Below are positions 48,503-64,000 of a DNA stretch of 64,000 nucleotides, in pieces (the stretch's first letter is position 1; every line of letters starts with the position of its first letter). Origin of the DNA: Candidatus Fermentithermobacillus carboniphilus. Lineage in GTDB: Bacteria; Bacillota; Sulfobacillia; Fermentithermobacillales; Fermentithermobacillaceae. The translations under genes were made by a program, and so were the position numbers. Under the pieces are notes generated by a model. It was not told the origin of the DNA and did not search any database. It was given only the letters and a program-made list of their open reading frames with translations. The DNA is taken from NCBI GenBank assembly GCA_018208355.1, contig CP062796.1, positions 960,494 to 1,024,493 on the forward strand. Direction: 5' to 3'.

Positions 48503-48961
48503 ATGCCCCTTGTGAAACCTGTCCCGAGGAACAAGACTGCTGTCCCGAAGTTCCCGGGGCCTGTCAAGCCAAAAACAGGACACAATACTGACCTTAGATT
48601 GGAGAATCTCAGTTAAATGTAGAAAGCCAAGCCCCTGCCTGAACGTCACCTTACGGCCACACGGCAACACAGGTGCCTGGCAAAGGATTCACCTAGCCCG
48701 CCAAATCTGTGATTGCGAGTAAACGTGGCGGCAATGTGATCTGCTCCAGGCTCCCTGCCGGTAACCAAGCACCCTGCGTACCTTGACCGGGACTGCCACC
48801 CAGCCTTCACCAGTTCACGCACCATTGGTTGAAATCAAAAATTCATGTCTACCCCCTTCAACACGGGAATACCAAATATTGCACAAATGTTCACAACAAT
48901 TTCTATCTTTGGGAAGGATTTTACTCCCCATACCGAGAACTACGCCACGCAAGCATTTGAT

Positions 48962-48975
48962 TGAACAATTGTTCA
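48962..48975. promoter_or_regulatory. Perfect 14-bp palindrome TGAACAATTGTTCA abutting the Shine-Dalgarno site of the PTS IIB gene (candidate operator)
   Basis: Read directly. A half-site-like tgttcacaaca lies at about 48887..48897. The SorC-type regulator is encoded in the operon. Confidence 0.45.
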
Positions 48976-48993
48976 CGAAAGGAGGATGATTTT

Positions 48994-49491
48994 TTGGGTT
49001 TTGCCCTGGTTCGCATTGACGATAGGCTTATCCATGGACAGGTGATGGCCGTCTGGGCCAAGGCGCTGGGAGCAAAACGAATCGTCATAGTGGACGACCA
49101 GGTTTCTCAGGATCCCTTTCTGCAGAAAGTGATGCGGCTTGCGGCTCCGCCACAAATCAAAGTAGATATCTGTAGCATCTCCCAGGCACGTGAGGTCCTG
49201 ACAGGTCACGACGAAGCAAGCACTATTGTACTACTCAAGACGCCCCAGACTGCCTTGAGCCTTTTCGAAAATGGAGTACGGTTCAACAGCCTGAACGTGG
49301 GTGGCATCGGAGCCGGCCCCGGGCGCAAACCTGCTTACCGAAACATCTCTTTGTCGAGCGATGAATTTAGCGCGTTGGAAAAACTTGTTTCATCGGGAGT
49401 GCAGGTCGTTTTTAAGATTGTTCCGGATGACCGCGGGATGACGTTGGCTGACCTTGAGCCGAAACTAAAGGCAATTTTTAAGCACAACTAA
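48994..49491 (+). CDS. PTS mannose/sorbose-family EIIB component
   Basis: GFALVRIDDRLIHGQVMAVW. TTG start 8 nt after AAGGAGG. Confidence 0.85.
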   Translation: MGFALVRIDDRLIHGQVMAVWAKALGAKRIVIVDDQVSQDPFLQKVMRLAAPPQIKVDICSISQAREVLTGHDEASTIVLLKTPQTALSLFENGVRFNSLNVGGIGAGPGRKPAYRNISLSSDEFSALEKLVSSGVQVVFKIVPDDRGMTLADLEPKLKAIFKHN

Positions 49492-49509
49492 GCCCGGGAG
49501 GGGTGAGCA

Positions 49510-50268
49510 GTGAACATCGGGGTTTTCCAGGCCTTTCTTATAGCCCTATTCTATTATTTCTCCCAAAGTCCATGGTTCGTGGGGCTGGGATACTGGATTT
49601 TGTATAGGCCGCTTGTAGCCGGTACGATCGTAGGCATTATTCTCGGGAATCCTGTTCAGGGTGCCATAGTGGGAGCCACCATCAACCTTCTATACCTGGG
49701 ATTCATCTCTGCAGGCGGATCGCTTCCGGGAGACCCTGCCCTGGCCGGTTACCTCGGAACGGCTCTCGCGCTGAGTTCCGGCCTTGATGTGAATGCTGCC
49801 TTGGCCTTGGCTGTGCCTATCGGCCTTCTCGGCACAGTCATCTGGTTTGGGCGGATGACGCTGGATTCAATCTTTGTCCATTGGGCTGACCGGTACGCAG
49901 AAGAAGGAAATATGAGGGGTATAGTCATCGCCAACGTTATCGCCCCTCAAATACTGCTGTTCACCATCTCTTTCTTCCCCGTTTTCTTTGCAAGCCTGTA
50001 CGGCCCCCAGGCGGTAAAGGCAGTTCTTGACTTCCTTGGTGCCAATATTCTGCACATGCTCATAGTCATCGGCGGGATGATGCCGGCCTTGGGTATAGCT
50101 CTTAACTTGCGTTCCATCAGCGGACCCGATACCATGCCTTTCTTCTTCCTGGGTTTCCTAGGGGCAGTCTATCTGAAACTTGACGTCATAGCTATCGGCA
50201 TCTTTGCGTTGGTCATCGCGTTTTACGTGGTGAAAAACAGGAGGGTAGTGAGCGCCGATGGAAACTAA
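49510..50268 (+). CDS. PTS mannose/sorbose-family EIIC component
   Basis: 252-aa polytopic membrane protein with a typical IIC-Man sequence (GATINLLYLGFISAGGSLP). Confidence 0.8.
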   Translation: MNIGVFQAFLIALFYYFSQSPWFVGLGYWILYRPLVAGTIVGIILGNPVQGAIVGATINLLYLGFISAGGSLPGDPALAGYLGTALALSSGLDVNAALALAVPIGLLGTVIWFGRMTLDSIFVHWADRYAEEGNMRGIVIANVIAPQILLFTISFFPVFFASLYGPQAVKAVLDFLGANILHMLIVIGGMMPALGIALNLRSISGPDTMPFFFLGFLGAVYLKLDVIAIGIFALVIAFYVVKNRRVVSADGN

Positions 50269-51076
50269 CAAGAAAAGCCTGACCCGTAAAGATCTTCTGA
50301 AGTCGTGGCTCATCTGGACGTTCTTCTCCCACTCCTGCTACAACTATGAGCGACTTCAGGCTCTCGCCTTTGCCCATTCCATGACCCCCATAATCAAGAA
50401 ACTATATGACAAAAAGGAAGAAGTCGTCGCTGCTCTCAAACGCCACCTTGTATTTTTCAATACAGAACCTAACGTTGGGAGCGTCATTCACGGCATAACC
50501 ATAGCAATGGAGGAGGAAAGAGCCAACGGCGCCCCCATAAGCGATGAGGCCATCACCTCGGTTAAGACGAGTCTCATGGGACCTCTTGCCGGTATAGGCG
50601 ATACCATCACCCAGGGCATACTTGCCCCCATCCTGATCGCATTTGGCGTTGACCTCGCCAAAACAGGAAACCTTCTCGGTCCGGTCTTTTACGCCCTCCT
50701 AATCGGTATCGCCATCCTTGGTATAGCGTACTTTACGTTCTTCCAAGGTTACAGGCTCGGAAAGAAAGCAGTAGAGCAGATCCTTGAAGGCGGACTACTT
50801 AAAAACGTGATATCAGGCGCGGGTATAATGGGAGCCACAGTGATCGGGGCACTCACAGCAAAGTTCGTCTCCGTTTCAACTCCCGTGATCCTTACTGTGG
50901 GTCAGGCACAAGTGAAACTTCAAGATGACGTCTTTAACAAAATAATGCCCGGGCTATTACCGCTGCTCCTCACTCTTCTGGTGTTGCGACTCCTCCGTCG
51001 GGGGAACTCGCCAACCAAGGTAATGCTTTGGATTGTGGTTATCGGCATTGTAGGAAGTCTGGTTAAGTTCTTCTAA
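50258..51076 (+). CDS. PTS mannose/sorbose-family EIID component
   Basis: FFSHSCYNYERLQALAFAHSM (the NYERMQ hallmark), 272 aa. Confidence 0.85.
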   Translation: METNKKSLTRKDLLKSWLIWTFFSHSCYNYERLQALAFAHSMTPIIKKLYDKKEEVVAALKRHLVFFNTEPNVGSVIHGITIAMEEERANGAPISDEAITSVKTSLMGPLAGIGDTITQGILAPILIAFGVDLAKTGNLLGPVFYALLIGIAILGIAYFTFFQGYRLGKKAVEQILEGGLLKNVISGAGIMGATVIGALTAKFVSVSTPVILTVGQAQVKLQDDVFNKIMPGLLPLLLTLLVLRLLRRGNSPTKVMLWIVVIGIVGSLVKFF

Positions 51077-51096
51077 TGGTTAAAGGAGGGGAGATC

Positions 51097-52086
51097 TTGG
51101 GCGTTAAAGATATAACCCATGGACATCACCTCGATGAAAATGATATTCGACTTATTATATCCGTCGCAGAACGATACTACGAGTTCGGGCAAACGCAGCA
51201 AGAGATCGCAGACCAGCTCGGGATCTCCCGTCCGAAAGTATCCCGGTTGCTCACTAGAGCAAGACAAGAGGGGATAGTTCAAATTAGCATCGTAAACCCA
51301 TTTTCCCGGGAAAAAGAGGTTGTCCGGGAACTTGTAGAAAAGTATCACCCATATGGATTGGAAGATGCGGTGGTTGTTCCCACCAGCCTCCGGGAAGACG
51401 CACTGATAGCTCAGAAACTCGGTCAGGTAGCTGCTTCATATTTGTGCGAGCACCTCTCAGACGGTGAAGTCGTGGGCATAGGACGGGGACGTACCATATA
51501 CGAGATGGTCAAAGCTCTACCTGAAAGGGAGTTTCCCAACGTACAGATCGTCCCTCTTTCCGGAGGCCTTGGCCAGGCTGACGCCCGGTTTCAGGTCAAT
51601 GAGATGGCTCACCGGGCAGCAGAGAGATTGGGAGGCCGCTGTGTTTACCTTTACGCTCCGGCCATTGTTGAGAGTGAACAAAGTAAAAAGGCGTTGTACT
51701 CGGTCCCGCACATACGCAAGGCGGTCCAGTTGTGGGATCACCTTGACTGGGCAATCGTGGGAATTGGAGCCATCGACAGTCCGCACAATGCAGAGTATTT
51801 CCAGGTAATGAAGTACCTCATCGATGTTTTGGATGTAAGGAACGCAGTCGGAGATATATGCCTCTGGCATTTTGACTTTAACGGTTCCTTCTGCAAAGGG
51901 AAACACGACATTCTGATAAGCATTACTCCCGAACAGCTGAAGCGTTCCAAGAAAACACTTGCCGTAGCCGGTGGAGCCAAGAAAGTTGGAGCGATAGCTG
52001 CAGCACTGAAGGGAGGCATTGTCAGTGTCATGGTGACTGACGAATACACAGCCAGAAAAGTGCTTGAAACAACACAGCAAGAGTAG
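51097..52086 (+). CDS. SorC/DeoR(Bsu)/CggR-family sugar-binding transcriptional regulator
   Basis: N-terminal helix-turn-helix YYEFGQTQQEIADQLGISRPKVSRLL followed by a sugar-phosphate-binding domain. TTG at 51097 after AAAGGAGGGGAG. ORF opens at 51076. Confidence 0.8.
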   Translation: MGVKDITHGHHLDENDIRLIISVAERYYEFGQTQQEIADQLGISRPKVSRLLTRARQEGIVQISIVNPFSREKEVVRELVEKYHPYGLEDAVVVPTSLREDALIAQKLGQVAASYLCEHLSDGEVVGIGRGRTIYEMVKALPEREFPNVQIVPLSGGLGQADARFQVNEMAHRAAERLGGRCVYLYAPAIVESEQSKKALYSVPHIRKAVQLWDHLDWAIVGIGAIDSPHNAEYFQVMKYLIDVLDVRNAVGDICLWHFDFNGSFCKGKHDILISITPEQLKRSKKTLAVAGGAKKVGAIAAALKGGIVSVMVTDEYTARKVLETTQQE

Positions 52087-52088
52087 GG

Positions 52089-52499
52089 ATGAATATGGTC
52101 GGAATCCTAATTATGTCTCACGGGGATTGTGCCTCTGGCTTACTTTCGGCAGCAAGTCTGATCATGGGCGAACTTCCTCTATGTAAAGCCGTTGGGCTTT
52201 ACCCAGGAGAATCCCTTGAAGATTTCATCAACAAGGTGCGGAAGGTCATCGAAGAGTTCCCAAACGGGGTAGAAATCTTGTGCCTCGTCGATCTCTTCGG
52301 AGGGACTCCCGCAAATACAGCCGCTCTCCTCTACGAAATGAGGGGTCACAGATGCATAACTGGTGTAAACCTCCCGATGCTCTTGGAAATCCTTTCGTCC
52401 CGAGAAACCAGGAATATAGATGAACTCGTGGCGATCGGCCAGGAAGCTGGCAAGAGGGGAATCCTGAATCTCGCCGACTCCCTGGAAAGACAGGCCTAG
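52089..52499 (+). CDS. PTS mannose/sorbose-family EIIA component
   Basis: VGILIMSHGDCASGLL with the phospho-His motif. 136 aa. Confidence 0.8.
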   Translation: MNMVGILIMSHGDCASGLLSAASLIMGELPLCKAVGLYPGESLEDFINKVRKVIEEFPNGVEILCLVDLFGGTPANTAALLYEMRGHRCITGVNLPMLLEILSSRETRNIDELVAIGQEAGKRGILNLADSLERQA

Positions 52500-52575
52500 G
52501 CTTAAAAGTGGCGACTCGGCCGATGGAATACTCGTAGTTGTCGAGGTCGCTCAAACATTGAAAGGAGTTACTAGC

Positions 52576-53364
52576 ATGAAGGACTTGAGGATGAACCGGA
52601 TATTTGCAAAAGATGGTAACACCCTCATTGTGGCGATGGACCACGCCGCGACTATGGGGGTATTGCCTGGACTCCAAAATCCTGGATATGTCATTGAAAA
52701 AATCACATTGGGTGGCGCAGATGCAATAATGACGAGCTACGGTGTCATCTCCCGGTTTGGTCACATGATCCGCGGCCTTGGCGTAATCTTGCGCGTGGAC
52801 GGAGGAACTTCTGCCCTCGGGGATAAGGCCACAGGTTTCATGCAGGAGATATACACGGTAGAGGATGCACTGCGCTTGGGCGCAGATGCCGTCGTTTGCA
52901 TGGGCTTTCCCGGATCAAAAAACGAGCATCTTACGTTGAATTATCTGAGCCGAGTAGTTGCTGAGGCCGAGAAATGGGGAGTTCCTGTTCTCGCAGAGAT
53001 GCTGCCACGAGGATTCGAGTCCAGAGAGGACTCACGGACAGTTGAGAATATCAAGACCGCTGTCCGTATAGGTGCAGAGCTTGGGGTGGATTTCATAAAG
53101 ACCCAATATACCGGAACGGTTGATAGTTTCAGGGAGATAGTCGAGAGCGTTTACGTTCCAGTTGTCGTTTTGGGGGGCAGTAAGATGGAGACCGACATCG
53201 ACGTCCTCCAAACTGTCCATTCGGCTATGGAAGCTGGAGCTAGAGGAGTTGCTATCGGGCGTAACATTTGGCAACATCCTGCCCCTGAAAAGATGACGAG
53301 GGCACTACATGCCATAATCCACGAAGGAGTGAGCGTTTCCCAAGCTTCAAAGTATCTCTGCTAA
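52576..53364 (+). CDS. Class I aldolase of the DhnA/FbaB/LsrF family (paralog of 28268..29092)
   Basis: LIVAMDHA..DAVVCMGFPG..VDFIKTQYTG..VVVLGGS..VAIGRNIW. ATG at 52576 after AAAGGAG. Confidence 0.7.
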   Translation: MKDLRMNRIFAKDGNTLIVAMDHAATMGVLPGLQNPGYVIEKITLGGADAIMTSYGVISRFGHMIRGLGVILRVDGGTSALGDKATGFMQEIYTVEDALRLGADAVVCMGFPGSKNEHLTLNYLSRVVAEAEKWGVPVLAEMLPRGFESREDSRTVENIKTAVRIGAELGVDFIKTQYTGTVDSFREIVESVYVPVVVLGGSKMETDIDVLQTVHSAMEAGARGVAIGRNIWQHPAPEKMTRALHAIIHEGVSVSQASKYLC

Positions 53365-53468
53365 GTGGCACAAGACGACGGATAAGCCGCCGCAACGTGT
53401 ACCTTACTGCAGCTGGACTAACCAACCGTACCAAGCATCAAGCATCAATCCGGAAAGGAGAGAGGACC

Positions 53469-54509
53469 GTGGTCAACCATCAGTTAGTCATATGGGGTCC
53501 CAAGAAAGTGGGTATTATTGAGTCTCCTGTACCCGAACCTAGGGCAGAAGAGGTGTTGGTTAAAATCAGGGCTTCTGCCATCTGCACATGGGAACAAAGG
53601 GCATATTCCGGCAGCCAGCAGGATTCGTATCCACTTCTCGGAGGTCATGAGTTCTCCGGCGAAGTTGTCTCCGTGGGACCCGGAGTGAAAAACAGGGATA
53701 TCACTGCCGGTAAGACTGTTGCTGTAGCCAGGTTAACACGGTGCGGAGAATGTCACAACTGCCGTACCGGAAAGGATAATTTGTGCCTAAATACGAGATT
53801 TGACAGGGTTGAAGGGAAACCGTTCGGTCCCGGCGGGTTGAGTGAATATGTGGTGGCCCCCAGCTACCAGATATACCCTTTCAGCAACAATGTTTCCTTT
53901 GAGGAAGCGGCACTCAGTGAGCCTCTTTCCTGTGTAGTACGGAGCATTCGACGCGCCAACGTATCATTTGGGCAGAATGTACTGGTAATAGGAGCCGGTA
54001 TCATGGGGCTTTTGCACGGACTCCTTGCGAAGCTTAGAGGTGCAACGGTCATAATCAGCGAGCCTTTAGAGCATCGACGTAGCAAAGCCCGTGAGATCGG
54101 AGTAGATACTGTAATTAATCCCAAGGAAGAGAATGTGGTTGAGCGTGCCCGCGAACTTACAGGTGGTCTGGGAGCAGATGTAGTATTCGTAACTGCAGGT
54201 GGGGCTGCTGCCATCGAGGAGGCCCTCAGGCTTGTCGCTTCCGGAGGGACCGTAGTCCTTTACGGCGCGATGTATCCACCTCCCATGGTGACCGTGGACG
54301 TGAACAAAATCCACCATAATGAGATCACAATTACGGGAACTATGAGCCAGACCAGAGAGGACTTTCTGATCGCCACGAAACTGATAGACTCGGGTGCTAT
54401 TGATCTTAAACCTCTGATTTCAGCAACCATCCCATTCTCGCAGGTCGAAGAAGCATTCCAAAGAGCACTAGACCCAACAAATTACCGTATTGTTGTGACC
54501 ATGCCCTAA
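53469..54509 (+). CDS. Zinc-dependent medium-chain dehydrogenase (sorbitol/threonine dehydrogenase-like)
   Basis: CTWEQR.., LLGGHEFSGEVV, structural-zinc CGECHNCRTGKDNLC, GAGIMGLL Rossmann motif. GTG start after GGAAAGGAGAGAGG. Confidence 0.85.
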   Translation: MVNHQLVIWGPKKVGIIESPVPEPRAEEVLVKIRASAICTWEQRAYSGSQQDSYPLLGGHEFSGEVVSVGPGVKNRDITAGKTVAVARLTRCGECHNCRTGKDNLCLNTRFDRVEGKPFGPGGLSEYVVAPSYQIYPFSNNVSFEEAALSEPLSCVVRSIRRANVSFGQNVLVIGAGIMGLLHGLLAKLRGATVIISEPLEHRRSKAREIGVDTVINPKEENVVERARELTGGLGADVVFVTAGGAAAIEEALRLVASGGTVVLYGAMYPPPMVTVDVNKIHHNEITITGTMSQTREDFLIATKLIDSGAIDLKPLISATIPFSQVEEAFQRALDPTNYRIVVTMP

Positions 54510-54545
54510 AATCAAGACCACTTTTCTGGTTACCCTTGATAAAAA

Positions 54546-54582
54546 CCCGAGGGGGTCCGGAATTCACTGGGGACCCCTCGGG
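54546..54582. terminator. Strong 12-bp GC-rich hairpin between convergent operons; the U-tract is on the minus-strand side
   Basis: cccgagggggtcc-loop-ggacccctcggg, preceded on the plus strand by AAAAA (TTTTT after the hairpin on the minus strand). Lies 37 nt after the dehydrogenase stop and about 265 nt after the nagB-like stop. Confidence 0.65.
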
Positions 54583-54846: not shown

Positions 54847-55659
54847 CTACGGCGCCAGTTGTCGGGACAGGTGCAACCCTGGAGTCCCGTCCGATAGCAA
54901 AGCCGCCGCTTCGTTATCCAGGAGCACTGTTAGATTCCCGTGCACACGTAATAGCGAAGCGGGAACCTCTGGAGTGGGCGGATCCAGCAGGAATGCACGG
55001 ACCACTTTGGCCTTGTGTGGCCCACAGGCAAGCAGCACGATCTCCCTAGCCTGCAGGATCGTCCGCAGACCTACTGTCAGTCCTAGCCGCGGCACGCGCT
55101 CAACCGAGCCCCCAAACCAAACTGCCTGCGCCCGCCGGGTCGCTTCTGAAAGATCCACCACATGTGTCCCTAGACTGGGATCGCTACCAGGTTCGTTGAA
55201 CGCCACGTGCCCGTTGTTACCAATGCCTACCAGAGCCAGATCAATCCCACCCGCCTCCGCGATGGCTTCTTCGTAACGCCGGCATTCCTTTTCCAGGTCC
55301 TCTGCCCAACCACGCGGGATATCATATTGACCCTTATTTAGCCCTGCCGGGCCCCAGAAGCGCTCCTTCATGTACCTGTAAAAGGAACCTTCATCACCCG
55401 GCTGAACCCCTACAAACTCGTCCAGATTGAAAAACCTGGCCGAATCGAACTGCAAGATCCCCGCCTTGCGGCGTCTTACCAGCTCATCATACATGGCCAG
55501 AGGTGTTGCACCGGTAGGCAGAGCGAACACTGGGTTAGGGCGCTCCAGCAGCACCTCCTGGATGAGGTCTGCAGCACGATTCCCTACCTGAGTGCAGGAT
55601 TGCCAGATCTCAACTCTCACCGGTGATTCCTCACCATGATCGAGAACGTTATCTCCCAT
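54847..55659 (-). CDS. Glucosamine-6-phosphate deaminase/isomerase family protein (second NagB-like paralog)
   Basis: FALPTGATPLAMY..FFNLDEF..DLALVGIGNNGHVAFNEPGSD. ATG at 55659 after GGAGG. Confidence 0.8.
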   Translation of the reverse strand: MGDNVLDHGEESPVRVEIWQSCTQVGNRAADLIQEVLLERPNPVFALPTGATPLAMYDELVRRRKAGILQFDSARFFNLDEFVGVQPGDEGSFYRYMKERFWGPAGLNKGQYDIPRGWAEDLEKECRRYEEAIAEAGGIDLALVGIGNNGHVAFNEPGSDPSLGTHVVDLSEATRRAQAVWFGGSVERVPRLGLTVGLRTILQAREIVLLACGPHKAKVVRAFLLDPPTPEVPASLLRVHGNLTVLLDNEAAALLSDGTPGLHLSRQLAP

Positions 55660-55759
55660 TATGAGCACCTCCATTGGCTTCATCCACCGAGGTCAACCTC
55701 ATCCACCGAGGTCAAAGACAAACTTTGTGCCACAAAGTATCCGTAACCTCAATCAAGTA

Positions 55760-56956
55760 TCAATCAAGTATCATTCTCGTACCTGCCTCGGTTTGCCCCA
55801 CACCGAGATATGATGCGGCTGTGGCGCCGATATCAGAGAGCGTAACACGCACTCCAAGGGACCTCGGCTTGAACTTCTTGCCGAACGCTAGCAGCAAGGT
55901 CTTCTCCCTTGTATGATGCCCTGTTCCCCTGACGGGGTCGTTGCCGTGATCTCCTGTCACAAACAGCAAGTCCTCATCGTTGAGAACTTCTATCAACTTT
56001 GGGAGATGCTGGTCTACCACCATCAGTGCCTCTGCCCACTTTACCGGATCTCGCGAATGGCCAGCAAGGTCCGTCTCCTGGACGTTGGCAACTATCAGCC
56101 CTGCATCCAGCTGGGACGCATATCTGCACAGGGTCTTCATAACTTTTTCAGTATCGACGCAGGGTTCGTATATGGCTCCGTCTGCATGCAAAACATCCGC
56201 GGCTTTTCCTATCAGTACAACAGGAAGCCCCGCCTTTCTTACTAGTCCTGTCACTTGTAAATCCGGGCGGTCAGTGTTGCCAAGATGTCTCACGACGTAC
56301 CCTCTCTTGTATACACCAGAGCGGGTACAGTTCACTCCAGTGGCCCCGTAAGGCGTCCGTTCGATAGCTGACATGATGTTGTCTATCGTTATGCCTCGGC
56401 CACCCAATACGATTACCCTCGAAACTTGCGCATATCGTCTGACGATTTGCCCGATCCTTAGCACCTCATCGAAAGGGATGCTGTCCAACGGAGCCGTTAC
56501 GTTGTAGTTGAGGTACGGTTCTCCTTCGATGTTATCCGCAACCACTACAAGCCCATTTACCACCAGATACCCACCGCTTCCGTCGGGTTGCTCAGCCCGG
56601 TATCCTGCCGTCTCCAGCGCATGGCGGACCCTTTGCGCTGCATCCCTGAAGGGTATGGCAACCGGTGGTTTTGGCAAAGAACCTGCAATTTCCTGATGAC
56701 CCTGAAAGGTATCGGCTCCCTCGTGGGCCAGCAGCGAAGCACCATAAGATGCAAGAGGTGCCTCTATGGGCCGAAGGTTGGAGGTACGCACTATGAGTCC
56801 GGCACCCAGCGATTCAAGGGCGCGCAGGCGGACGTCAGGATTTGCTTCCAAGACATGCTTGAACGTGTTTGTTCCTACATCCTGGGGACGGACCATTGAC
56901 ACATCGTCCATGGCCCCAACTCCGAGACCATCGATCACCAATATTACGGCTTTCAC
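55760..56956 (-). CDS. Phosphopentomutase-like metalloenzyme (YhfW-like)
   Basis: MKAVILVIDGLGVGAMDD, ETDLAGHSRDP, TGDHGNDP are alkaline-phosphatase-superfamily phosphomutase motifs. 398 aa, against 408 aa for E. coli YhfW. Confidence 0.7.
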   Translation of the reverse strand: MKAVILVIDGLGVGAMDDVSMVRPQDVGTNTFKHVLEANPDVRLRALESLGAGLIVRTSNLRPIEAPLASYGASLLAHEGADTFQGHQEIAGSLPKPPVAIPFRDAAQRVRHALETAGYRAEQPDGSGGYLVVNGLVVVADNIEGEPYLNYNVTAPLDSIPFDEVLRIGQIVRRYAQVSRVIVLGGRGITIDNIMSAIERTPYGATGVNCTRSGVYKRGYVVRHLGNTDRPDLQVTGLVRKAGLPVVLIGKAADVLHADGAIYEPCVDTEKVMKTLCRYASQLDAGLIVANVQETDLAGHSRDPVKWAEALMVVDQHLPKLIEVLNDEDLLFVTGDHGNDPVRGTGHHTREKTLLLAFGKKFKPRSLGVRVTLSDIGATAASYLGVGQTEAGTRMILD

Positions 56957-57010
56957 AATGCAACACTTCCTTGGATCGGCGCAAAATGCCGCAAATAGGC
57001 CGCCATGTTC

Positions 57011-58204
57011 TCATCCTTGTACCTTCCTAAGCAGGTTTCCGCGGGAATCGTATAACCCCGTAAGATGCGGATTACCCCCGGAAATCCCTTCTACGACCGC
57101 CACGTAGGATCGTGTTACAAATATCTGCGTCCTAAAAGCAAAAATCGCGGTATCTCCTACCTTTACGTTATCTGCGACCCGTACTGGCAGGTAATAGTCG
57201 ATGTGATCCTGCCTCGGCTGGCTGGCTCTGAAGCGGCGCTCGCAAATGGTATCAGGGTCATTCCCGACGAGCGCTTCTTTCAGGTGGGAGCGGGCGTAAA
57301 ATCCTCCCCCAAACACGTAAGCCTCGTTTTTGAAAACGTGTGAGACCTCGCTCACGTACACCATGGCAGGTATTTCGGGCTGGTCGGACACCGCATGGAG
57401 GGGAGTCGTCCCAGTTAGGGAATGGCCTGGTTCAGCGTGGGAAATCCCCAGGGATTTCAGCAACCCCATTGTAGAAGCACAGGTCATGCTCGGACCGTTG
57501 ATCTGCCTAACCTCCACCCCCGCATCTCTCAAGATAGATGCCGCTCGCAGCATGGTGTTCACATTTGGAGTAGGCCTTGGTTCCCGTGTTGCATTGTCCA
57601 TGATAAGGCAGGGAAATGAAGTAACACCCACCACTTGAATGCCCGGAAGTTTCTTGAGCTCCTCGATGGCCCGGGGCAGTTCTTCAATAGCGATGCCCCC
57701 GCTCTGCATGGGGTAGAAGAAATCATCCCGGGAAACTACTCTGAGAAGGATGTTTTGCCTGGTTCCCGCTTTGACCGCCGCCTCGGATAACTCCCTGGCT
57801 TTATCCACGGAAAAGCACGTTACTACTTCGGGAGCAACAGATATTACCCATTCTATAAGCCCCGAGGGTACTTGGACGAGATGCCCTACATGTCCCAGGC
57901 GGATTCCAAATCCGTGGAGTTGCTGGGCTTCTTCATAATCAACGGCAACCGCCGAGTCTATACCCGCCTTCGAAATTGCATCTGCAAGTTCCGGGTTCCG
58001 GCCAATTTGTTTTGTCATGAAATACAGACCCAGGCCGTGCTTTCTGGCGGAATCCGCGATTATACGCGCATTCTGGAAAACCGCGTCTTTATCGATCACA
58101 TAAGTATTGGGTGGAATCAGGCCCTTCCTATGAAGTTCACATGCTGTGACGATTAACTGCGGATTCCTCTTGACCATCGATTCAAGGAACAAATCCGATG
58201 TCAC
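57011..58204 (-). CDS. Alanine-racemase-fold PLP protein (YhfX-like)
   Basis: 397 aa. Position and size match E. coli YhfX. The N-terminal TIM-barrel-like region includes the FMTKQIGRNPE Lys region. Family assignment is from memory, not a search. Confidence 0.55.
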   Translation of the reverse strand: MTSDLFLESMVKRNPQLIVTACELHRKGLIPPNTYVIDKDAVFQNARIIADSARKHGLGLYFMTKQIGRNPELADAISKAGIDSAVAVDYEEAQQLHGFGIRLGHVGHLVQVPSGLIEWVISVAPEVVTCFSVDKARELSEAAVKAGTRQNILLRVVSRDDFFYPMQSGGIAIEELPRAIEELKKLPGIQVVGVTSFPCLIMDNATREPRPTPNVNTMLRAASILRDAGVEVRQINGPSMTCASTMGLLKSLGISHAEPGHSLTGTTPLHAVSDQPEIPAMVYVSEVSHVFKNEAYVFGGGFYARSHLKEALVGNDPDTICERRFRASQPRQDHIDYYLPVRVADNVKVGDTAIFAFRTQIFVTRSYVAVVEGISGGNPHLTGLYDSRGNLLRKVQG

Positions 58205-58223
58205 CTCTTATCCGGCTGAAGTG

Positions 58224-59339
58224 CTAGTTCATACCCTGGCCTTGCGTTGACCTGGCCCGTTCCAAGGCTTTACGGAGTATTCTGATCACTGTATCGGGGC
58301 CAGCCCTCATGGGATTAATCCGGATAACGCGGTCTTTCATCTCTGGAGATGCCTGGAGAAAGGAACCAGAAACGCGGTAGAACATGGCACCTATTTCGTA
58401 TCTTGATTCGGCTCCCACCGGATAAGGTACGGCTCCAAGGTCCCTGGCCGCTTGGAGCACGTTTGCTGCAATCGGCTCTTCAAATTCAACCAACACAACC
58501 CGGGATTGAGCGTTGGCTACGCACGCGCTAATGACACCTGGTACTTCTCCCTCATTAAGACGGGCAGCAATCTCATCTACGACTCTGGCTTGAATGGCCT
58601 GCGCCACCGGCACATACACAAGAGACCTGAGGGCTTCCATGGCTTCGTGCCCCTGAACCTGACTCCCGCCGGAGTAGTTGTACCCCCTGACGCGCTGGAT
58701 TACACTGGAACGCCCGACCACACACCCGATACCTTCCGGGCCGAGTAACTTGAACATTGAAAAAGCCGAAGCATCCGCCCCCATTGCGGCCCCCACCAAG
58801 TGTACCTTCATTACAGCATAGTTTTCGTCTGTGACTATCGGGACATCAGGCAAGATACTTCGGATCGCCTCTATCACCTCGCATACATCGTACCGGTCCG
58901 TGAGGACTTGACGGCTCCGCTGGATAAGGACTGCATCAGGACGAAGGGCGCAACCCCGCCTGACGTCAGCAAGATCGTTCATGTCTACGGGTAATACGTT
59001 AATCCCCATGGATTCGATAAGGGTCTTAGTAGTGCTGTATATTGGAGCTTGGTGGATAAGGAGCTTTGCGCCAGGCCGCAACATAGCCCAGATGGCGAGC
59101 CTCAGGGCGCCGGAACCGGCGCCCCTCACCAGCACGGCACTTTCGGTACCAAAGAACCTGGCCAGCACTTCTTCAACTTTCGCGGTAGTTTTCGGCCTGC
59201 CCAGCCCCGGGACAATACCCAAGTCCCCCAAGGAGAGCAATTCGTCGCCCGAGAACACCGATTGAATGATGTCTACAAGTCTGAACTGAACTTGAATTGC
59301 TTCATCGAGTGTCAGTTGTTTTAGCGGATACGATTTCAA
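58224..59339 (-). CDS. PLP-dependent transferase-fold protein (YhfS-like)
   Basis: 371 aa. GAGSGALRLAIWAML.., FSMFKLLGPEGIG (Lys in a PLP-like context). Size and position match E. coli YhfS. Confidence 0.55.
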   Translation of the reverse strand: MKSYPLKQLTLDEAIQVQFRLVDIIQSVFSGDELLSLGDLGIVPGLGRPKTTAKVEEVLARFFGTESAVLVRGAGSGALRLAIWAMLRPGAKLLIHQAPIYSTTKTLIESMGINVLPVDMNDLADVRRGCALRPDAVLIQRSRQVLTDRYDVCEVIEAIRSILPDVPIVTDENYAVMKVHLVGAAMGADASAFSMFKLLGPEGIGCVVGRSSVIQRVRGYNYSGGSQVQGHEAMEALRSLVYVPVAQAIQARVVDEIAARLNEGEVPGVISACVANAQSRVVLVEFEEPIAANVLQAARDLGAVPYPVGAESRYEIGAMFYRVSGSFLQASPEMKDRVIRINPMRAGPDTVIRILRKALERARSTQGQGMN

Positions 59340-59380
59340 TACAAAAGACCTCCTCAGGAAAGAACCGTCTTGTCCACATC

Positions 59381-60250
59381 TCAGAAGGGTCCAAAGAGCT
59401 TTTCGGGAGCTTCAGAAAGCATCAGGTTCAGATCCCTGTCCGAAAGCCCTAATTCGCGCAGCATAGGCACAAATGACTCCATAAGATAAGCCCGCCCATA
59501 GCCCCCGTACCGCCTCAGATGAGAAAGTCTTGTGATATCGGTGGACAGAAGCAGTTTCTCCGCGTATCCCCTGTTCGAAAGCTTGACAATGAGCGATGCC
59601 CTTAGCGCATCTGGCTGATAAGTTTGTTTCCCGATGGTATCAAAGCCGAGGTATACGCCGTGGTCTAGAAGCCGAAGGTAGTAGTCTAGCTCAGGGTTCA
59701 GGTCTACGTGGCCGATCACGACTTTCTCAAGATCTGCACCTGCAGCCTTAAGGATCTTGACCTGCTCTAAGCCCAATCGCCCAAGAGTCATGTGAGTATA
59801 AATCGGCACTCCCGTCTCACGTTGAGCAAGAGCTGCTGCGCGAAACACCTTTGCTTCGGTAGGGGAAATCTCGTTCCCCGTACCAATTTCTCCTATCAGT
59901 TTTGCCCTTTCTCCAGTATTTTCAATGCCATCGGTTATTTCCTTTATCATCAACGCCGCAAGCTCAGATTCTGACTTTTCGAGAACTATCTTGGGGAAAA
60001 AAGGCTCCTTGTAAAATCCTGTGGAAAAGGAGACCGCGACGCACGCTTTCTCACATAGCGCCTTCGCAGTCCTTACATCTCGTCCCATCCCGATGTTGGT
60101 AACGTCAATTATCCGCTGGATACCGCTGGCCACAGTCTGCTGGAGGTCTTCCAGAATCGCCGTACCATCGAGCATCTGGGCATCGGGATCGTTTTTCATC
60201 ATCGAAAGATCGATTACCACATGTTCGTGGCAAAGGGTTTTCAAAACCAT
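59381..60250 (-). CDS. php: Phosphotriesterase homology protein (amidohydrolase superfamily)
   Basis: Collinear similarity to E. coli Php as recalled: TLCHEHVVIDLS (HxH), AKLIGEIGT, VPIYTHM, VVIGHVDL, LGFDTIGK, LLLSTDITR, GGYGRAYL. 289 aa against 292 aa. Confidence 0.85.
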   Translation of the reverse strand: MVLKTLCHEHVVIDLSMMKNDPDAQMLDGTAILEDLQQTVASGIQRIIDVTNIGMGRDVRTAKALCEKACVAVSFSTGFYKEPFFPKIVLEKSESELAALMIKEITDGIENTGERAKLIGEIGTGNEISPTEAKVFRAAALAQRETGVPIYTHMTLGRLGLEQVKILKAAGADLEKVVIGHVDLNPELDYYLRLLDHGVYLGFDTIGKQTYQPDALRASLIVKLSNRGYAEKLLLSTDITRLSHLRRYGGYGRAYLMESFVPMLRELGLSDRDLNLMLSEAPEKLFGPF

Positions 60251-61362
60251 TCGCCTCCGAAGAAAAGGTCGTCTGCTTCAACGGGATCCTGCCGAAAGTA
60301 ACGATAAAACAGCGGTGGTCGGACGATACCTCTGTCGATTTCGACTGCAAGCTTTAGAGCTTTACGCGCGGTAACAAAACCAGGTTTGGCCATCAATACT
60401 ACCCCACAAGCCATGTCCGTTCCAGGGAGTACGATGGAGGTCGCCTGGCTCATGTTAGCCGCCCTGATTAGAAATTTGCCTGAGGTTTGCCGCACTCTTC
60501 GACCAGTAACCCCGAGCTCACCTAGGACTGAGTCCCCAAGGCCCCATACATCGATAGGTCCTTCGTATGAAATCACAATGTCTACTTCCGAAAATGCATG
60601 TGAGAGCGCATGCAGCGCTGTCTTCCGATCATCGCAGCCAGACAAGTTAAGTTCCTTTACCTGGACCCCGAAGCGCTCAAGGCTTCCTACGACCCTCATG
60701 AGGTTTTCCCTCATATCCCCAAGCGTGGGCAGTTCAAGACATCCTCGAGCCGGGACACCTACTATGACTCCGTCCAATGATTCCTCGTTTATGACATCGG
60801 TAGATATCTGCTTTAGAGTCAAGTGTTCAACGGCATCGAGAGCTACCTGAATATCTTTAGATATGACTCCTATACCGGGTACGAACGAAAGTTCGTCTGT
60901 AGATATTCTTTGCCTCGTACCGGTAAGCCCGATTCCCGAGGCCACGATTCCGAACAGGTTGCACGATAGAGCCGGCCCCAACACCGAGCCACCCCCATCG
61001 GCCCCCACGGCAAGATCGTTGATGCCGTACAGCACGTTGATTGCACTCCCGCTGGAAGAGCCAGTCATGACTCGACCTGTTAGGGGATTAATTCGGAAAG
61101 GATCGATAGCTCTTCCCTTGAACGAACAAGTATCGACGGTCAACCATACGTAGCCGGGCGCGCGACGAAGGTTTTGTACCAGCTGGCGACTTATTTGTGA
61201 CGTATCCTTTATTCCGAACAAGACAAGTCTCTCACTGTCAGAGATAGCGCGCTCGGCATCCCTAGGGGCAAGAGGATTTAGATACTTAACCGTATATCCC
61301 CGCATTTCGTTTGCGCGCATGATAGATAGGCACAGCCTGGCCATTTCAGAAACTTTATTCAC
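60241..61362 (-). CDS. Amidase-signature-like protein (short form)
   Basis: GSSSGSAINVL and GADGGGSVLGPA resemble the amidase-signature GGSSGGS/GTDxGGSIR motifs. 373 aa. Not part of the E. coli yhf cluster. Confidence 0.5.
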   Translation of the reverse strand: MNKVSEMARLCLSIMRANEMRGYTVKYLNPLAPRDAERAISDSERLVLFGIKDTSQISRQLVQNLRRAPGYVWLTVDTCSFKGRAIDPFRINPLTGRVMTGSSSGSAINVLYGINDLAVGADGGGSVLGPALSCNLFGIVASGIGLTGTRQRISTDELSFVPGIGVISKDIQVALDAVEHLTLKQISTDVINEESLDGVIVGVPARGCLELPTLGDMRENLMRVVGSLERFGVQVKELNLSGCDDRKTALHALSHAFSEVDIVISYEGPIDVWGLGDSVLGELGVTGRRVRQTSGKFLIRAANMSQATSIVLPGTDMACGVVLMAKPGFVTARKALKLAVEIDRGIVRPPLFYRYFRQDPVEADDLFFGGEWF

Positions 61363-61471
61363 GCTTCTCGCCTCTCAAATCCCGCCGGTTTTTGCTTTCC
61401 ACAATCTACAGGACAATGTCTCGTTCATTACCCCGTATACCCCAGACCGCCTGCCGCGTTTCGTAATCCAA

Positions 61472-61528
61472 TGGCCATCCGGTCTTTAGCCGGAGGCCGG
61501 TAATTTCCTGGCTTCCGCCGGATGGCCA
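61472..61528 (-). other. Intercistronic stem-loop (11-bp perfect outer stem TGGCCATCCGG/CCGGATGGCCA enclosing a second GC-rich helix)
   Basis: Read directly in the 190-nt gap between the yhfT-like and amidase-like genes. No adjacent U-tract. Confidence 0.5.
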
Positions 61529-61554
61529 GCCTACTGAGACTAATCTCCTTCAAA

Positions 61555-62835
61555 TTAAGCCGGCGGCTTAAAAAGGCCCAAAAGTGCCAGAATGTTGGCC
61601 AGAAGTCCTACAAGAATCGCAGTTACAGGGCCCACCGCCATCCGTACAACAGGCCGCCCGGCAACCTCGTTCAAGAGGTATAGACCTACGACGATGATCG
61701 TGCCAAGTCCCGGAAGAATCGCGTTTGCCGCATTGGCTCCGCCTACCAGCAGGGCAATTTCGAGAAGCTGGCTCATTGCAGTCCTAATGCTGTCAGCTGA
61801 GTTCTTGATTCCCGGGAACTTATCCAGAAACGACGCCACAGACCCAAGGAGGAACACTTCAGCAGCGATGATTACTGCACCAAGCAATCCACCAAGCACC
61901 GGGTTATTTACGGCAAGAGCAGCTGCGAAGATAAACGTCATCCCTACGGGTCCGTAAACCCCCGTGGCGATCGCGGTTGTCCCTACTAGCGGAACAAAGC
62001 CGAGCCCTCTTGCAAAGGCTGCAAGAGCTGCCGCGGAGATTTGCCCCTTAGAAACCAGGTTCAGCGAAATGGGGTCTCCGGCGAGAATGTGGAGGGAAGT
62101 AGCTGCTCCAACCAAAGCACCAATAATAGCAAGGTATATAACGTTCTTGCGTATTCTGCCTACACGGTCTCCGAAAAGTGAGGCTGTGGACACTGCAGTG
62201 TCTGACTGTCTCTCCCCTGCAGCGTAGGCAAGTAGGACGATCATACCAGCCAGCATCGCCATTCCTTCAGGGCTCAAACTAACCTTTACGCTCCCAAGCG
62301 CAATTGGGTTGAATCTCGCGAAAAGAGTACGAATAAGAGCAGAGATTGCAAGGGTGATAAGGCCGTTCTTTGCACCATATTGATTACCCACTGCAATTGC
62401 CGGAAATGCTGCAAAAGCGAGCGTCACTGGGGCACCGATTTGTCCCATGGCATTGAAGAAGTTAACTGGAAGATGCTTGAAGGCATTCACTACCCATTGC
62501 AGTCCGGATAAGAGTCCGACACCATAAACCGCCCCCACAACTGCAGCAGCAACCGCACCGAACTTGCTGGAAGGCGCCCAGGTCCCTATGATATCAGTAC
62601 CCAGCAAGATGCTATGAACCAAGAGAATGCTGGCACTGATGGATACAGGGATGCCGAAACCGATCACAAGACCAAAACTCAGCGCAAAGCTGGTGGCTAC
62701 GAGCTCAGCCTTAGTCATCCTACCCTCAAGGAACTCGGGCATGATGGGCCTAAGCCCGTCGTTAAACACAGCTATCCCGCGGTTGGCAAGTATGGCGGAT
62801 ACAGCACCGATAGCCCCAATGATTACATAGTTCAC
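61555..62835 (-). CDS. Polytopic membrane protein (YhfT-like putative transporter)
   Basis: 426 aa, Gly/Ala-rich with about 11-12 TM helices. Size and position match E. coli YhfT (434 aa). ATGA overlap with the upstream gene. Confidence 0.6.
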   Translation of the reverse strand: MNYVIIGAIGAVSAILANRGIAVFNDGLRPIMPEFLEGRMTKAELVATSFALSFGLVIGFGIPVSISASILLVHSILLGTDIIGTWAPSSKFGAVAAAVVGAVYGVGLLSGLQWVVNAFKHLPVNFFNAMGQIGAPVTLAFAAFPAIAVGNQYGAKNGLITLAISALIRTLFARFNPIALGSVKVSLSPEGMAMLAGMIVLLAYAAGERQSDTAVSTASLFGDRVGRIRKNVIYLAIIGALVGAATSLHILAGDPISLNLVSKGQISAAALAAFARGLGFVPLVGTTAIATGVYGPVGMTFIFAAALAVNNPVLGGLLGAVIIAAEVFLLGSVASFLDKFPGIKNSADSIRTAMSQLLEIALLVGGANAANAILPGLGTIIVVGLYLLNEVAGRPVVRMAVGPVTAILVGLLANILALLGLFKPPA

Positions 62836-63206
62836 TTTTGGTTTCCCTCCTTGTTCATTAAGACCTCGACCAGCATTGGCACCGCCGTATCGATATGGTC
62901 ACTGGTGATTCCGAACGCAACTTTCCCTTCCCGCACTGCTTTCTCTATCATCTCATGCTTGGGCGGTTTTCCTGGCATAGACAGAATGGCGCATTTCGCA
63001 GACCCAAGTATGGCCATAGCCAGCGCCAGCGCGCCACCGCCACCCGTAGCGCAAGCACCAACGTAATAATCGGCCTTACCAGTCTTAACAGCCATAGCCG
63101 CTTCTACGTCGGACATTACTGCGGCTTCAGCCTGGCCACCTGAAGCCTCCTTGATCTTGGCTGCCACTTTCTGTTTGTCGATCGCCCCGCCCACTGCGAA
63201 TTTCAT
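62832..63206 (-). CDS. DUF2620 protein (YhfU-like)
   Basis: MKFAVGGAIDKQKV..YYVGACATGGGGALALAMAILG. About 124 aa from the ATG at 63206. Coupled to the yhfT-like gene. Confidence 0.55.
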   Translation of the reverse strand: MKFAVGGAIDKQKVAAKIKEASGGQAEAAVMSDVEAAMAVKTGKADYYVGACATGGGGALALAMAILGSAKCAILSMPGKPPKHEMIEKAVREGKVAFGITSDHIDTAVPMLVEVLMNKEGNQK

Positions 63207-63310
63207 CTCATTGTTCACCTCCTCGTATGCTTTGATTTGAAGCCAAGTTTTCGAGCTTTCTTGGGTCATTCGCTTGGGACCGGTATGTCACGCCTTTGCT
63301 CATTGACATT

Positions 63311-63664
63311 TCAATGTAGTTCTTCCAGTAAACTGCAAATGTGCGCCATGACATACCCCTTTTCGCTATCAGGCAAGTTCACTCCGAGACTATCCATGAA
63401 GGACATGAACTGCCGGGCAAGTGGGTAGTGAGGGGACGCCTCTACCTGGCGAAGGATCTCCTCCGGCAGCCCCTCCACCGCCTCACAGGACCTTGCACGC
63501 TGGACAGCCATGGCCAGATGAGTAATGAACATCTGTCCATTCTCCCCATCTATTGGGATGCCTCTATCTGAAAGCCAGACCAAAAGCAATTGCAAGATGT
63601 TTTCAACCTCCTGCGTGATCACTCCCGAGTTCTTTAGAAGTCTGAGCCTTTCTGTCGGATTCAT
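63311..63664 (-). CDS. Stand-alone PRD-domain protein (YhfY-like)
   Basis: 117 aa, all-helical with conserved His (FITHLAMAV, YVMAHI). Size and position match E. coli YhfY. Confidence 0.5.
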   Translation of the reverse strand: MNPTERLRLLKNSGVITQEVENILQLLLVWLSDRGIPIDGENGQMFITHLAMAVQRARSCEAVEGLPEEILRQVEASPHYPLARQFMSFMDSLGVNLPDSEKGYVMAHICSLLEELH

Positions 63665-63721
63665 GGTAAACCTCCATCCCGGCTACTTTCGTTGGTCTGG
63701 AAGTATCAGGATCAGTTTGTG

Positions 63722-64000
63722 CTAATAGTTAGGTAGCAGTTTCTCATCCAGGACCAAACGTTGAAGTTCCAGCACCTTATCCACGTCAATCACAGTCCTG
63801 AGGAGATTCGAGATCGCACGGTTATTCCTCCGAACAACTACCACGGCTACCGTACCCCTGTCGTCAAGGTGGCAGGCTTCTTTGCTAGAAAGGTTACAAT
63901 ACGTGATCGGGTACCCTCTTTCAATGACCTCGTCGACGTTCCAGATGGCGGCATCTATCCGTCGCGTCAGAAGGCTCCTGATAACCTGACTGTAAGGCAT
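63722..64000 (-). CDS. 3' part of a gene continuing beyond the window end; YhfZ-like putative regulator, by position only
   Basis: Open to the window edge. The C-terminal sequence ..RRIDAAIWNVDEV.. resembles a substrate-binding-fold regulator domain. Assignment rests mainly on synteny. Confidence 0.35.
   Translation of the reverse strand: MPYSQVIRSLLTRRIDAAIWNVDEVIERGYPITYCNLSSKEACHLDDRGTVAVVVVRRNNRAISNLLRTVIDVDKVLELQRLVLDEKLLPNY

Follow-up and report, generated by a model that had tools for sequence, protein, structure and literature searches.

The window analysed here, a stretch of 64,000 nucleotides of the Candidatus Fermentithermobacillus carboniphilus genome (contig CP062796.1), carries an intact yhf/php cluster of the Firmicute type, an ordinary example of a widespread variant of the orphan yhf/php operon of Escherichia coli K-12. 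Ten co-directional open reading frames (ORFs), all on the minus strand within 54847..64000, lie in the order yhfZ, yhfY, yhfU, yhfT, an amidase gene, php, yhfS, yhfX, yhfW and a nagB-like gene. An earlier note on this DNA had placed the ten genes there and had recognised among them the full E. coli yhf gene set; the places were confirmed, and all of its family assignments were upheld by profile searches. All eight yhf/php families were found, above the Pfam/NCBIfam cut-offs except for the partial YhfZ, and the eight shared proteins are 29-52% identical to those of E. coli K-12 over essentially their full length (BLASTP; YhfZ from its C-terminal part). The window end cuts yhfZ down to its last 92 codons; the part coding for the N-terminal two-thirds of the protein lies outside the window, and so does the promoter. 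Our preferred reading, held tentatively, is that the locus would be a catabolic operon linked to the phosphotransferase system (PTS) and acting on an aminated carbohydrate, for which a glucosamine-containing amino-acid conjugate or some other N-substituted amino sugar is the likeliest candidate. Its direct basis is family membership, intact catalytic residues, gene order and co-occurrence, and from these we infer the identity of the substrate and the order of the steps.

The comparison covered about 170 related loci, metagenome contigs included (working labels L001, L002 and so on). Scanning one genome per species of GTDB with a YhfT alignment gave 179 relatives, and the best 80 of the 179 were examined (42 gammaproteobacterial and 38 non-gammaproteobacterial species), their gene content being scored by tblastn with the window proteins. 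Because simple ORF calling went wrong for some genes where the GC content was high (e.g. L009, L010), statements on gene content rest on tblastn or on the genes called for the contigs. The earlier note had described the gene order as rearranged. It does differ from that of E. coli K-12 (Z-Y-X-W-php-U-T-S, b3383-b3376, from NC_000913), but Z-Y-U-T-(amidase)-Php-S-X-W is the standard order outside the Gammaproteobacteria: four GTDB species (L008, L010, L020, L044) have the core order of the window, amidase included, and the closest relative found (L082, with a YhfT 85% identical) has the same gene order. Since the gene set and order recur in many species, the window locus is ordinary and not a one-off rearrangement. 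The metagenome scan gave the same picture of distribution, with many human-gut contigs, and this frequency suggests that the substrate may be diet- or host-derived.

The amidase and nagB-like genes are missing from the E. coli cluster, as the earlier note had stated, and also from those of the 42 sampled gammaproteobacterial species; the amidase gene is present in 21 of the 38 non-gammaproteobacterial ones. It encodes a short amidase-signature (AS) hydrolase of 373 aa (60241..61362, minus strand), matching PF01425 with 43 bits (gathering threshold 27); the match is partial and covers residues 96-243, profile positions 124-280 of 445. The catalytic triad, composed of K52, S102 (the cis-Ser, in TGSSSGS) and S126 (in DGGGS), is invariant in 40 homologues, and the S102-S126 spacing of 24 residues is the same as in malonamidase E2. 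The AlphaFold2 (AF2) model has a predicted local distance difference test (pLDDT) score of 91.5, and the best 50 Foldseek matches listed from the PDB are nearly all AS enzymes (E about 1e-16, TMq about 0.65), with about 15% identity to any solved AS enzyme. Judged by these comparisons, the subfamily is a shortened, deeply diverged branch of the AS enzymes. Of 1.84 billion proteins its profile recovers only 776 at E<=0.001, and at E<=1e-30 the subfamily amounts to 112 representative clusters; all seven homologues whose context was looked up independently of YhfT sit inside yhf clusters. Because the triad is kept, the fold is matched and the homologues are confined to yhf clusters, the protein is probably a dedicated, active hydrolase of the yhf pathway.

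An amidase, a racemase-fold enzyme, a glucosamine-6-phosphate deaminase and a phosphomutase, all in the set, are also what would be expected of a route that recovers pieces of the cell wall or spore cortex, for instance muropeptides, muramic acid in de-N-acetylated or lactam form, or aminoacyl-glucosamines of the bacillithiol kind. In such a route the amidase and Php would cut amides or lactams, YhfX and YhfS would handle D- and L-amino acids, and the NagB-like enzyme would finish the glucosamine part. An AS enzyme can open lactams (the 6-aminohexanoate cyclic dimer hydrolase is among the fold matches of the amidase), and a peptide-type importer is found in one locus (L173). We consider this origin of the substrate very unlikely: there was no MurQ-type etherase, NagA, NagZ or LD-carboxypeptidase in any cluster examined, the cluster is present in non-sporulating Enterobacteria and Pasteurellaceae, and the presence of the amidase is independent of cell-wall type. 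The clusters of lactobacilli, Listeria and Bacillaceae are without it, and the idea that it tracks amidated Gram-positive peptidoglycan was rejected on the same distribution.

The last gene of the unit (54847..55659, minus strand) encodes a NagB-like glucosamine-6-phosphate deaminase/isomerase of 270 aa. The first possible ATG is at 55683, but a GGAGG lies 8 nt upstream of 55659 and favours the start given in the earlier note, which leaves a spacer of 100 nt to yhfW. The protein scores 73.6 bits on Glucosamine_iso, 230 bits on NF001684 and 218.3 bits on TIGR00502 (cut-off 236.9). The catalytic Asp72, His143 and Glu148 (E. coli NagB numbering) are kept, in FNLDEFVG and GIGNNGHVAFNEPGS, together with the D-E and GxGxNGHxxFNEP motifs, as aligned with E. 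coli NagB; the Asp141 position is Asn in the window protein and in 5 of the 6 other aligned sequences, E. coli NagB alone having Asp. At least eight lineages (the window, L002, L006, L033, L058, L086, the L126 human-gut group and L173) have a nagB-type gene joined to the cluster. In four of them (L006, L033, L058, L126) the gene begins no more than 50 nt from the yhfW stop and, with 286-303 bits on TIGR00502, is well above the cut-off. These copies are only 30-38% identical to that of the window, and the number of nagB-yhfW adjacencies expected by chance is far below one, as a rough estimate from the gene-count ratio. The most economical reading would be repeated, independent recruitment of an ordinary NagB beside the mutase gene, and therefore the mutase step would yield glucosamine-6-phosphate or a very close analogue. 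The end in fructose-6-phosphate proposed by the earlier note is thus plausible from the canonical nagB beside yhfW in four lineages, although the window copy itself falls below the TIGR00502 cut-off.

The two extra genes could instead be neighbours or late add-ons without a mechanistic tie to the eight-gene core, which would then act on something other than amino sugars, for example a phosphorylated pentose or a nucleoside-amino-acid compound. YhfW is a paralogue of the phosphopentomutase DeoB, YhfU resembles ribose-5-phosphate isomerase B, and in one locus (L008) the pseudouridine genes psuG and psuK follow yhfW. Most clusters are without nagB and about half of the non-gammaproteobacterial ones without the amidase; in the window the nagB-like gene is separated from yhfW by its 100-nt spacer, with a weak promoter-like site at 55763-55736. 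Against this stand the attachment of nagB in so many lineages, four of them with short spacers and with a chance estimate far below one, and an amidase subfamily found nowhere else (seven of seven look-ups; 112 representative clusters) whose stop overlaps the php start in the window. We regard this explanation as quite unlikely.

As side observations on these genes, psuG and psuK follow yhfW in L008 only, and a DJ-1/PfpI gene occurs only in two Tepidanaerobacter species. The window has a second nagB paralogue (29230..29952; TIGR00502 234.6 bits, 38% identical to the cluster copy) in a second amino-sugar/PTS island on the minus strand (23949..34582), which also encodes a SIS-domain protein, NanE (ManNAc-6-phosphate epimerase), a ceramidase-like protein, a class II aldolase, a LacD/DeoC-type aldolase, a mannose-type PTS IIC-IID fusion, IIB, a GntR/UTRA regulator and an FGGY kinase.

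The remaining enzymes belong to the core shared with E. coli. The php product (59381..60250, minus strand) is a binuclear-metal hydrolase of the phosphotriesterase (PTE) family, of 289 aa (PF02126, 258.5 bits), and its start overlaps the amidase stop by 10 nt. It matches the E. coli PHP structures 1bf6 and 4lef at E 1.8e-70, with 43% identity to PHP, and is placed in the E. coli PHP branch by NF007373 (285 bits, under the cut-off of 486). The metal ligands H8, H10, E121, H153, H181 and D238 are at least 95% conserved in 72 homologues, and so are the cationic residues K19, R57 and R217. YhfS (58224..59339, minus strand) is a fold-type-I pyridoxal phosphate (PLP) enzyme of 371 aa, of aminotransferase/lyase type (YhfS-like_C 150 bits, Aminotran_5 43.6 bits, Cys_Met_Meta_PP 34 bits) and with a conserved S194-x-x-K197 motif and D171; YhfX (57011..58204, minus strand) is a fold-type-III, alanine-racemase-like PLP enzyme of 397 aa (YhfX-like_C 118 bits, Ala_racemase_N 63 bits), with a conserved K65 and a weak match to the ornithine racemase Orr. 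Both keep the PLP lysine, and both match E. coli structures deposited as 'uncharacterized' (YhfS 4j8l at E 3e-116; YhfX 4kbx at E 1e-105). YhfW (55760..56956, minus strand) is a DeoB-like phosphomutase of 398 aa, with 482 bits on NF009049 (cut-off 254) and scores below the cut-off on the DeoB models (NF003766, 158.7 vs 256; TIGR01696, 135 vs 341). All its catalytic positions are intact (D9, D82-T83, H87, E89, D296, H300, D336-H337 and H348, equivalent to D10, D97-T98, H102, E104, D306, H311, D347-H348 and H359 of E. coli DeoB), position 83 being Thr or Ser in all 39 homologues. On these scores the YhfW proteins are a family paralogous to DeoB. No kinase was found among the ten window genes with the Pfam and NCBIfam profiles.

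The Php branch bears on the main rival route, in which a 2-amino-2-deoxy-aldonic acid lactone or lactam would be taken up and phosphorylated, in the manner of the ula and dga systems, and Php would open the phospho-lactone. YhfX would then epimerise the 2-amino-aldonate phosphate, an alpha-amino acid, at C2, and YhfS would deaminate or transaminate it to a keto-deoxy sugar acid phosphate, with YhfW and the NagB-like enzyme as a side branch. The characterised PTE enzymes nearest to Php in NCBIfam are indeed phospho-furanose lactonases (NF045706, 124 bits), but with a cut-off of 630 Php lies outside that equivalog. The conserved K19, R57 and R217 would agree with such a substrate, the ula operon offers a precedent for a PTS with a phospho-lactone lactonase, and both universal PLP enzymes would get an alpha-amino-acid centre on the sugar itself. 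Halanaerobium (L086) has, immediately upstream of nagB and yhfZ, genes for an aldolase of KDPG type, for dehydrogenases and for an FGGY kinase. The core cluster, however, is without an aldolase, YhfS does not match the SelA-like DgaE family, the amidase and the phosphomutase have no obvious role, and NagB would have none on an aldonate, yet a canonical nagB stands repeatedly at the cluster end. For these reasons we think this route rather unlikely.

The family name PTE, the alkaline-phosphatase superfamily of YhfW and the resemblance of YhfS to Aminotran_5, reminiscent of the phosphonate transaminase PhnW, might also suggest a detoxification or biosynthetic module without any catabolic function, for instance one handling organophosphates or phosphonates through the PTE homologue. 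We judge this highly improbable, because the metal site of Php is Glu-bridged, as in the PHP/lactonase branch, and Php reaches only 88 bits on the organophosphate hydrolase model (cut-off 500), the associations with PRD, HPr, Enzyme I (EI) and NagB are typical of carbohydrate catabolism, and no C-P lyase or phosphonatase genes are present. A second PTE paralogue, 32% identical to the window Php, was observed in Lacticaseibacillus zeae directly upstream of yhfZ (L055, roughly 2000..8000), followed by a DRL-type oxidoreductase, a glucitol-type PTS (IIA, IIC, IIBC), GutM and a SorC-type regulator.

The first four genes of the cluster are yhfZ, yhfY, yhfU and yhfT. The 3' end of yhfZ (63722..64000, minus strand) specifies the C-terminal part of a HTH_41/YhfZ_C-type regulator (PF14503 YhfZ_C, 66.8 bits), corresponding to positions 216-304 of NF041241 (YhfZ_full) and 31% identical to residues 212-301 of E. 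coli YhfZ. YhfY (63311..63664, minus strand; GGAGG before the ATG) is a PRD-only protein of 117 aa (PF00874, 30.6 bits), found by ORF clustering in 66 of the 80 loci. All 66 homologues have the same His49; at the second PRD His position 24 have His and 42 have Asn. YhfY is likely a PTS-phosphorylated regulatory partner of YhfZ, or a phosphocarrier.

YhfU (DUF2620; 62832..63206, minus strand) has 124 aa and matches PF10941 with 147 bits; an alternative start at 63269 is possible, but the homologue lengths (118-124 aa) and the ribosome-binding site GAGGAGG favour 63206. The earlier note had taken it for a membrane partner of YhfT, which was not borne out: the AF2 model is a soluble alpha/beta protein (pLDDT 90.4) with an RpiB-like fold, RpiB structures giving the best TM-scores (5ifz 0.66/0.70, 3s5p 0.64/0.60). 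An invariant Cys-x-Thr-Gly loop is aligned by hhalign (97 columns) so that its Cys and Thr fall on Cys66 and Thr68 of E. coli RpiB, an alignment that is weak (E-value 0.01, probability 4%), and the Cys-x-Thr motif is also where weak profile matches to two RpiB/LacAB-like structures, 2ppw and 3c5y, are located. No Pfam family other than DUF2620, and thus no LacAB_rpiB, was matched at E<=10, and the positions of RpiB Asp9-His10 are Gly-Gly. A classical EIIB (UlaB, GatB) was rejected as the identity of YhfU, since hhalign gave only chance-level matches of 17 and 9 columns.

YhfT (61555..62835, minus strand) is a polytopic membrane protein of 426 aa, presumed to be a permease, with 582.6 bits on PF10797 and 38% identity to E. 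coli YhfT. The GTG start codon of yhfT and the stop codon of yhfU overlap in the sequence GTGA, and therefore translational coupling of the two genes is suggested. Given this coupling, YhfU could be a Cys phosphocarrier, or else a sugar-phosphate isomerase, as its modelled fold would allow. No other Pfam family at E<=10 and no sequence match among solved PDB structures were found for YhfT, and a known transporter or EIIC was rejected as its identity (hhalign against UlaA, probability 0.3%).

PTS genes of the general type are found inside some clusters. HPr and EI genes lie directly after yhfW in Alkalispirochaeta (L083) and in an unrelated metagenome contig (L100, EI only 36% identical), an EI gene directly after yhfT in a Chloroflexota metagenome-assembled genome (MAG; L084), and an HPr gene between yhfW and nagB in a Symbiobacteriaceae MAG (L173). 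The latter tells more about the nature of the substrate than any other single locus: its cluster (2532..15540) has, between yhfZ and yhfT, genes for a family-5 (SBP_bac_5, peptide/opine-type) ATP-binding cassette (ABC) substrate-binding protein and two permeases, and therefore hints at an amino-acid-containing substrate. Because ptsH/ptsI occur in-cluster, YhfY has its His49, the phosphomutase is intact and there is no kinase, phosphate would enter via a PTS relay.

According to the preferred reading, the substrate would be taken up through YhfT with its translationally coupled Cys protein YhfU, and phosphoryl groups would pass from phosphoenolpyruvate (PEP) to EI and HPr, an input that would explain the missing kinase, the PRD proteins and the ptsH/ptsI genes in some clusters. 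YhfZ, through DNA binding, and YhfY, through its PRD with one invariant His, would regulate the operon. Php and the cluster-specific Ser-cisSer-Lys amidase would unmask the substrate by hydrolysis, YhfX (racemase fold) and YhfS (fold type I) would carry out PLP chemistry at an alpha-amino-acid centre, the DeoB-like mutase YhfW would move the phosphate to give glucosamine-6-phosphate or an N-substituted analogue, and the NagB-like enzyme would convert the glucosamine-6-phosphate-type product into fructose-6-phosphate. The earlier note had read the route as self-contained, which it probably is not, given the lack of a kinase and the apparent dependence on general PTS proteins, whose genes ptsH/ptsI were found inside the cluster in four loci. 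The substrate classes that the note proposed (glycated, N-acyl or phospho-amino compounds) are candidates only.

Several findings weigh against this reading. YhfT has no detectable similarity to any PTS EIIC, and YhfU resembles RpiB and not a known EIIB. The ptsH/ptsI genes are inside the cluster in only 4 of about 170 loci and could serve PRD regulation alone, and the fructose- and mannose-type PTS genes beside some clusters may be coincidence. Since L173 has an ABC importer besides YhfT, import may be the task of a protein other than YhfT. Some lineages dispense with the amidase or with YhfW, E. coli lacking the former and Photorhabdus and Xenorhabdus the gene of the latter. Lastly, the window NagB-like protein scores under the nagB cut-off and nagB is attached in a minority of clusters only.

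YhfT, YhfU and YhfY might together form a previously unrecognised kind of PTS Enzyme II, an extension that we hold to be rather unlikely. YhfT would be a permease unrelated in sequence to the known EIICs, the Cys of YhfU, on its RpiB fold, would carry the phosphoryl group, and the single invariant His of YhfY would relay phosphate from HPr in place of an EIIA. The complex would deliver a phosphorylated amino-sugar conjugate to Php, the amidase, the PLP enzymes, the mutase and NagB. If true, this would be a new family in a transport system whose catalogue is held to be complete.

Other PTS genes were observed near the clusters. A sorbose-like mannose-family PTS operon converges on the window cluster from the plus strand (48961..54509; IIB, IIC, IID, SorC-type regulator, IIA, LacD/DeoC aldolase, Zn-dependent dehydrogenase), and in Companilactobacillus futsaii (L062) the cluster is followed, two genes downstream, by a mannose-type PTS of similar kind. 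A mannose-type PTS was rejected as the cluster transporter, the window copy being in a convergent operon with its own regulator and L062 being the only other trusted adjacency. Fructose-family PTS genes stand directly upstream of yhfZ, in the same direction, in two other genera: Photorhabdus (L029 and L045, about 3000..5900) has a FruB-like EIIA-HPr fusion and an EIIB'BC there, and Companilactobacillus (L072, 3346..8043) an EIIABC with a class II aldolase and a PRD/EIIA regulator.

The signals in the DNA suggest that the cluster is most likely one transcription unit, ending at a terminator after the nagB-like gene. Intergenic distances range from -10 to +100 nt, with one outlier of 192 nt between yhfT and the amidase gene. 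On the minus strand, 265 nt past the nagB-like stop, an intrinsic-terminator-like hairpin (54541..54582) has a 13-bp stem followed by UUUUU; its fold energy is -24.2 kcal/mol (z = -3.9), it was matched by none of 200 shuffles, and it is the first strong terminator downstream of the cluster. Inside the cluster there is no convincing terminator, terminator-like matches being no more frequent than in shuffled controls. Two metagenome contigs (L094, L095) have a split cluster, with W-X-S on one strand and Z-Y-U-T-Php divergent on the other, which indicates that the enzymatic and the transport/regulatory parts can be separate transcription units.

The 192-nt yhfT-amidase spacer (61363..61554, minus strand) contains a 55-nt hairpin (61473..61527) with a perfect 10-bp outer stem and no T-run; the spacer has a fold energy of -64.3 kcal/mol (z = -2.5), and the inverted repeat is unique within the window. 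The corresponding spacer measures -6 to 129 nt in 18 other loci, the closest relative among them. A regulatory RNA was rejected, since the hairpin is not kept in relatives, and Rfam gave no match in the cluster at E<=1 and none across the whole window at gathering scores. The hairpin could be an inserted element, or a site of RNA processing or stability.

Flanking genes were tried as clues to the substrate and rejected, being mostly unrelated housekeeping genes (metNIQ and sufCD in Enterococcus; mnmE, znuA and tRNA methyltransferase genes). Immediately downstream of yhfS in Photorhabdus luminescens, on the opposite strand, are eleven tandem paralogues of about 226 aa (L045, 12862..20962), members of a family with 88 copies over 11 Photorhabdus loci. 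Elsewhere in the window, a gene for a sigma-54-dependent activator of 749 aa adjoins one for an M28/PA-domain peptidase (39821..43830), and a spore photoproduct lyase gene (45447..46457) is the only direct evidence checked for the host being a spore-former.

Among the multi-enzyme operons of E. coli K-12 still without a substrate, yhf/php is one of the larger, despite the solved structures of PHP, YhfS and YhfX. The earlier note had described the system as never assigned, and this stands insofar as no paper or annotation assigning a substrate was found, although reports in subscription journals could have been missed. A 2025 paper still names YhfZ a putative transcription factor. Firmicute-type clusters are informative beyond E. 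coli through the amidase subfamily, the recruitment of nagB, the ptsH/ptsI genes in PTS-poor phyla and the one ABC importer. Combined, these clues would point the search towards a compound that contains an amino acid, yields glucosamine and is broken down in a PTS-dependent way, and would make the orphan operon directly testable.

Compared with known systems, the nearest is the E. coli yhf cluster, which shares the eight families, the co-direction and the tight packing, and whose RefSeq names are still 'putative' or 'uncharacterized'; the window cluster differs in its gene order and in two extra genes (amidase and NagB-like). The E. coli cluster adjoins the fructoselysine operon frlABCDR, whereas the window cluster does not. 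In E. coli K-12 (L001) frlABCDR is convergent on yhfS and in Atlantibacter hermannii (L036, 406..4449) frlABCD is divergent from yhfZ; in the other loci frl genes are not adjacent to yhf. The nagAB and frlABCD systems share a common plan, in which a transporter is followed by deglycation or deamination to a glycolytic sugar phosphate, and a NagB-type last step is also predicted for the window cluster. The Salmonella gfr (glucoselysine/fructoselysine, mannose-type PTS) and dga (D-glucosaminate) systems follow the same logic of PTS uptake and then deglycation or deamination. None of their characteristic enzymes (the SIS deglycases FrlB, GfrE and GfrF, the kinase FrlD, DgaE, NagA) is in the yhf cluster, and conversely the yhf core (PTE, two PLP enzymes, DeoB-like mutase, DUF2620, YhfT) is absent from the nag, frl, gfr and dga systems.

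The L-ascorbate (ula) regulon of E. coli, with the PTS permease UlaABC and the lactonase UlaG, provides a working analogy only, with PTS uptake, a metal hydrolase opening a phospho-lactone and a sugar-phosphate rearrangement. There is no detectable homology between YhfT and UlaA or between YhfU and UlaB, UlaG has a metallo-beta-lactamase fold and not that of PTE, and the regulon has no PLP enzymes, amidase or NagB. The phospho-sugar lactonases share the PTE fold and the binuclear metal site with Php and are the closest characterised enzymes to its branch; as described in PMC10971088, which cites Korczynska 2014, PTE-family lactonases of Mycoplasma and Streptococcus hydrolyse D-xylono- and L-arabino-1,4-lactone-5-phosphate. 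The AS enzymes (GatA, malonamidase E2, FAAH, peptide amidase) have the triad, the 24-residue Ser spacing, the GSSSGS motif and the fold in common with the yhf amidase, which is shorter (about 370 aa vs 410-600) and has 50 residues from the Lys to the cis-Ser (vs about 70-75). YhfU shares the fold and the equivalents of the catalytic Cys66 and Thr68 with RpiB/LacAB, but is about 25 residues shorter than RpiB and has Gly-Gly for Asp9-His10, and RpiB enzymes are not known to be translationally coupled to a membrane protein. Membership of the window proteins in the nagB equivalog, in DeoB proper, in the known EII families or, at the sequence level, in the RpiB family is thus not demonstrable by these comparisons. 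By every criterion that can be tested on the DNA, the locus is a yhf/php orphan cluster, which differs from that of E. coli in its gene order and in its two accessory enzymes.

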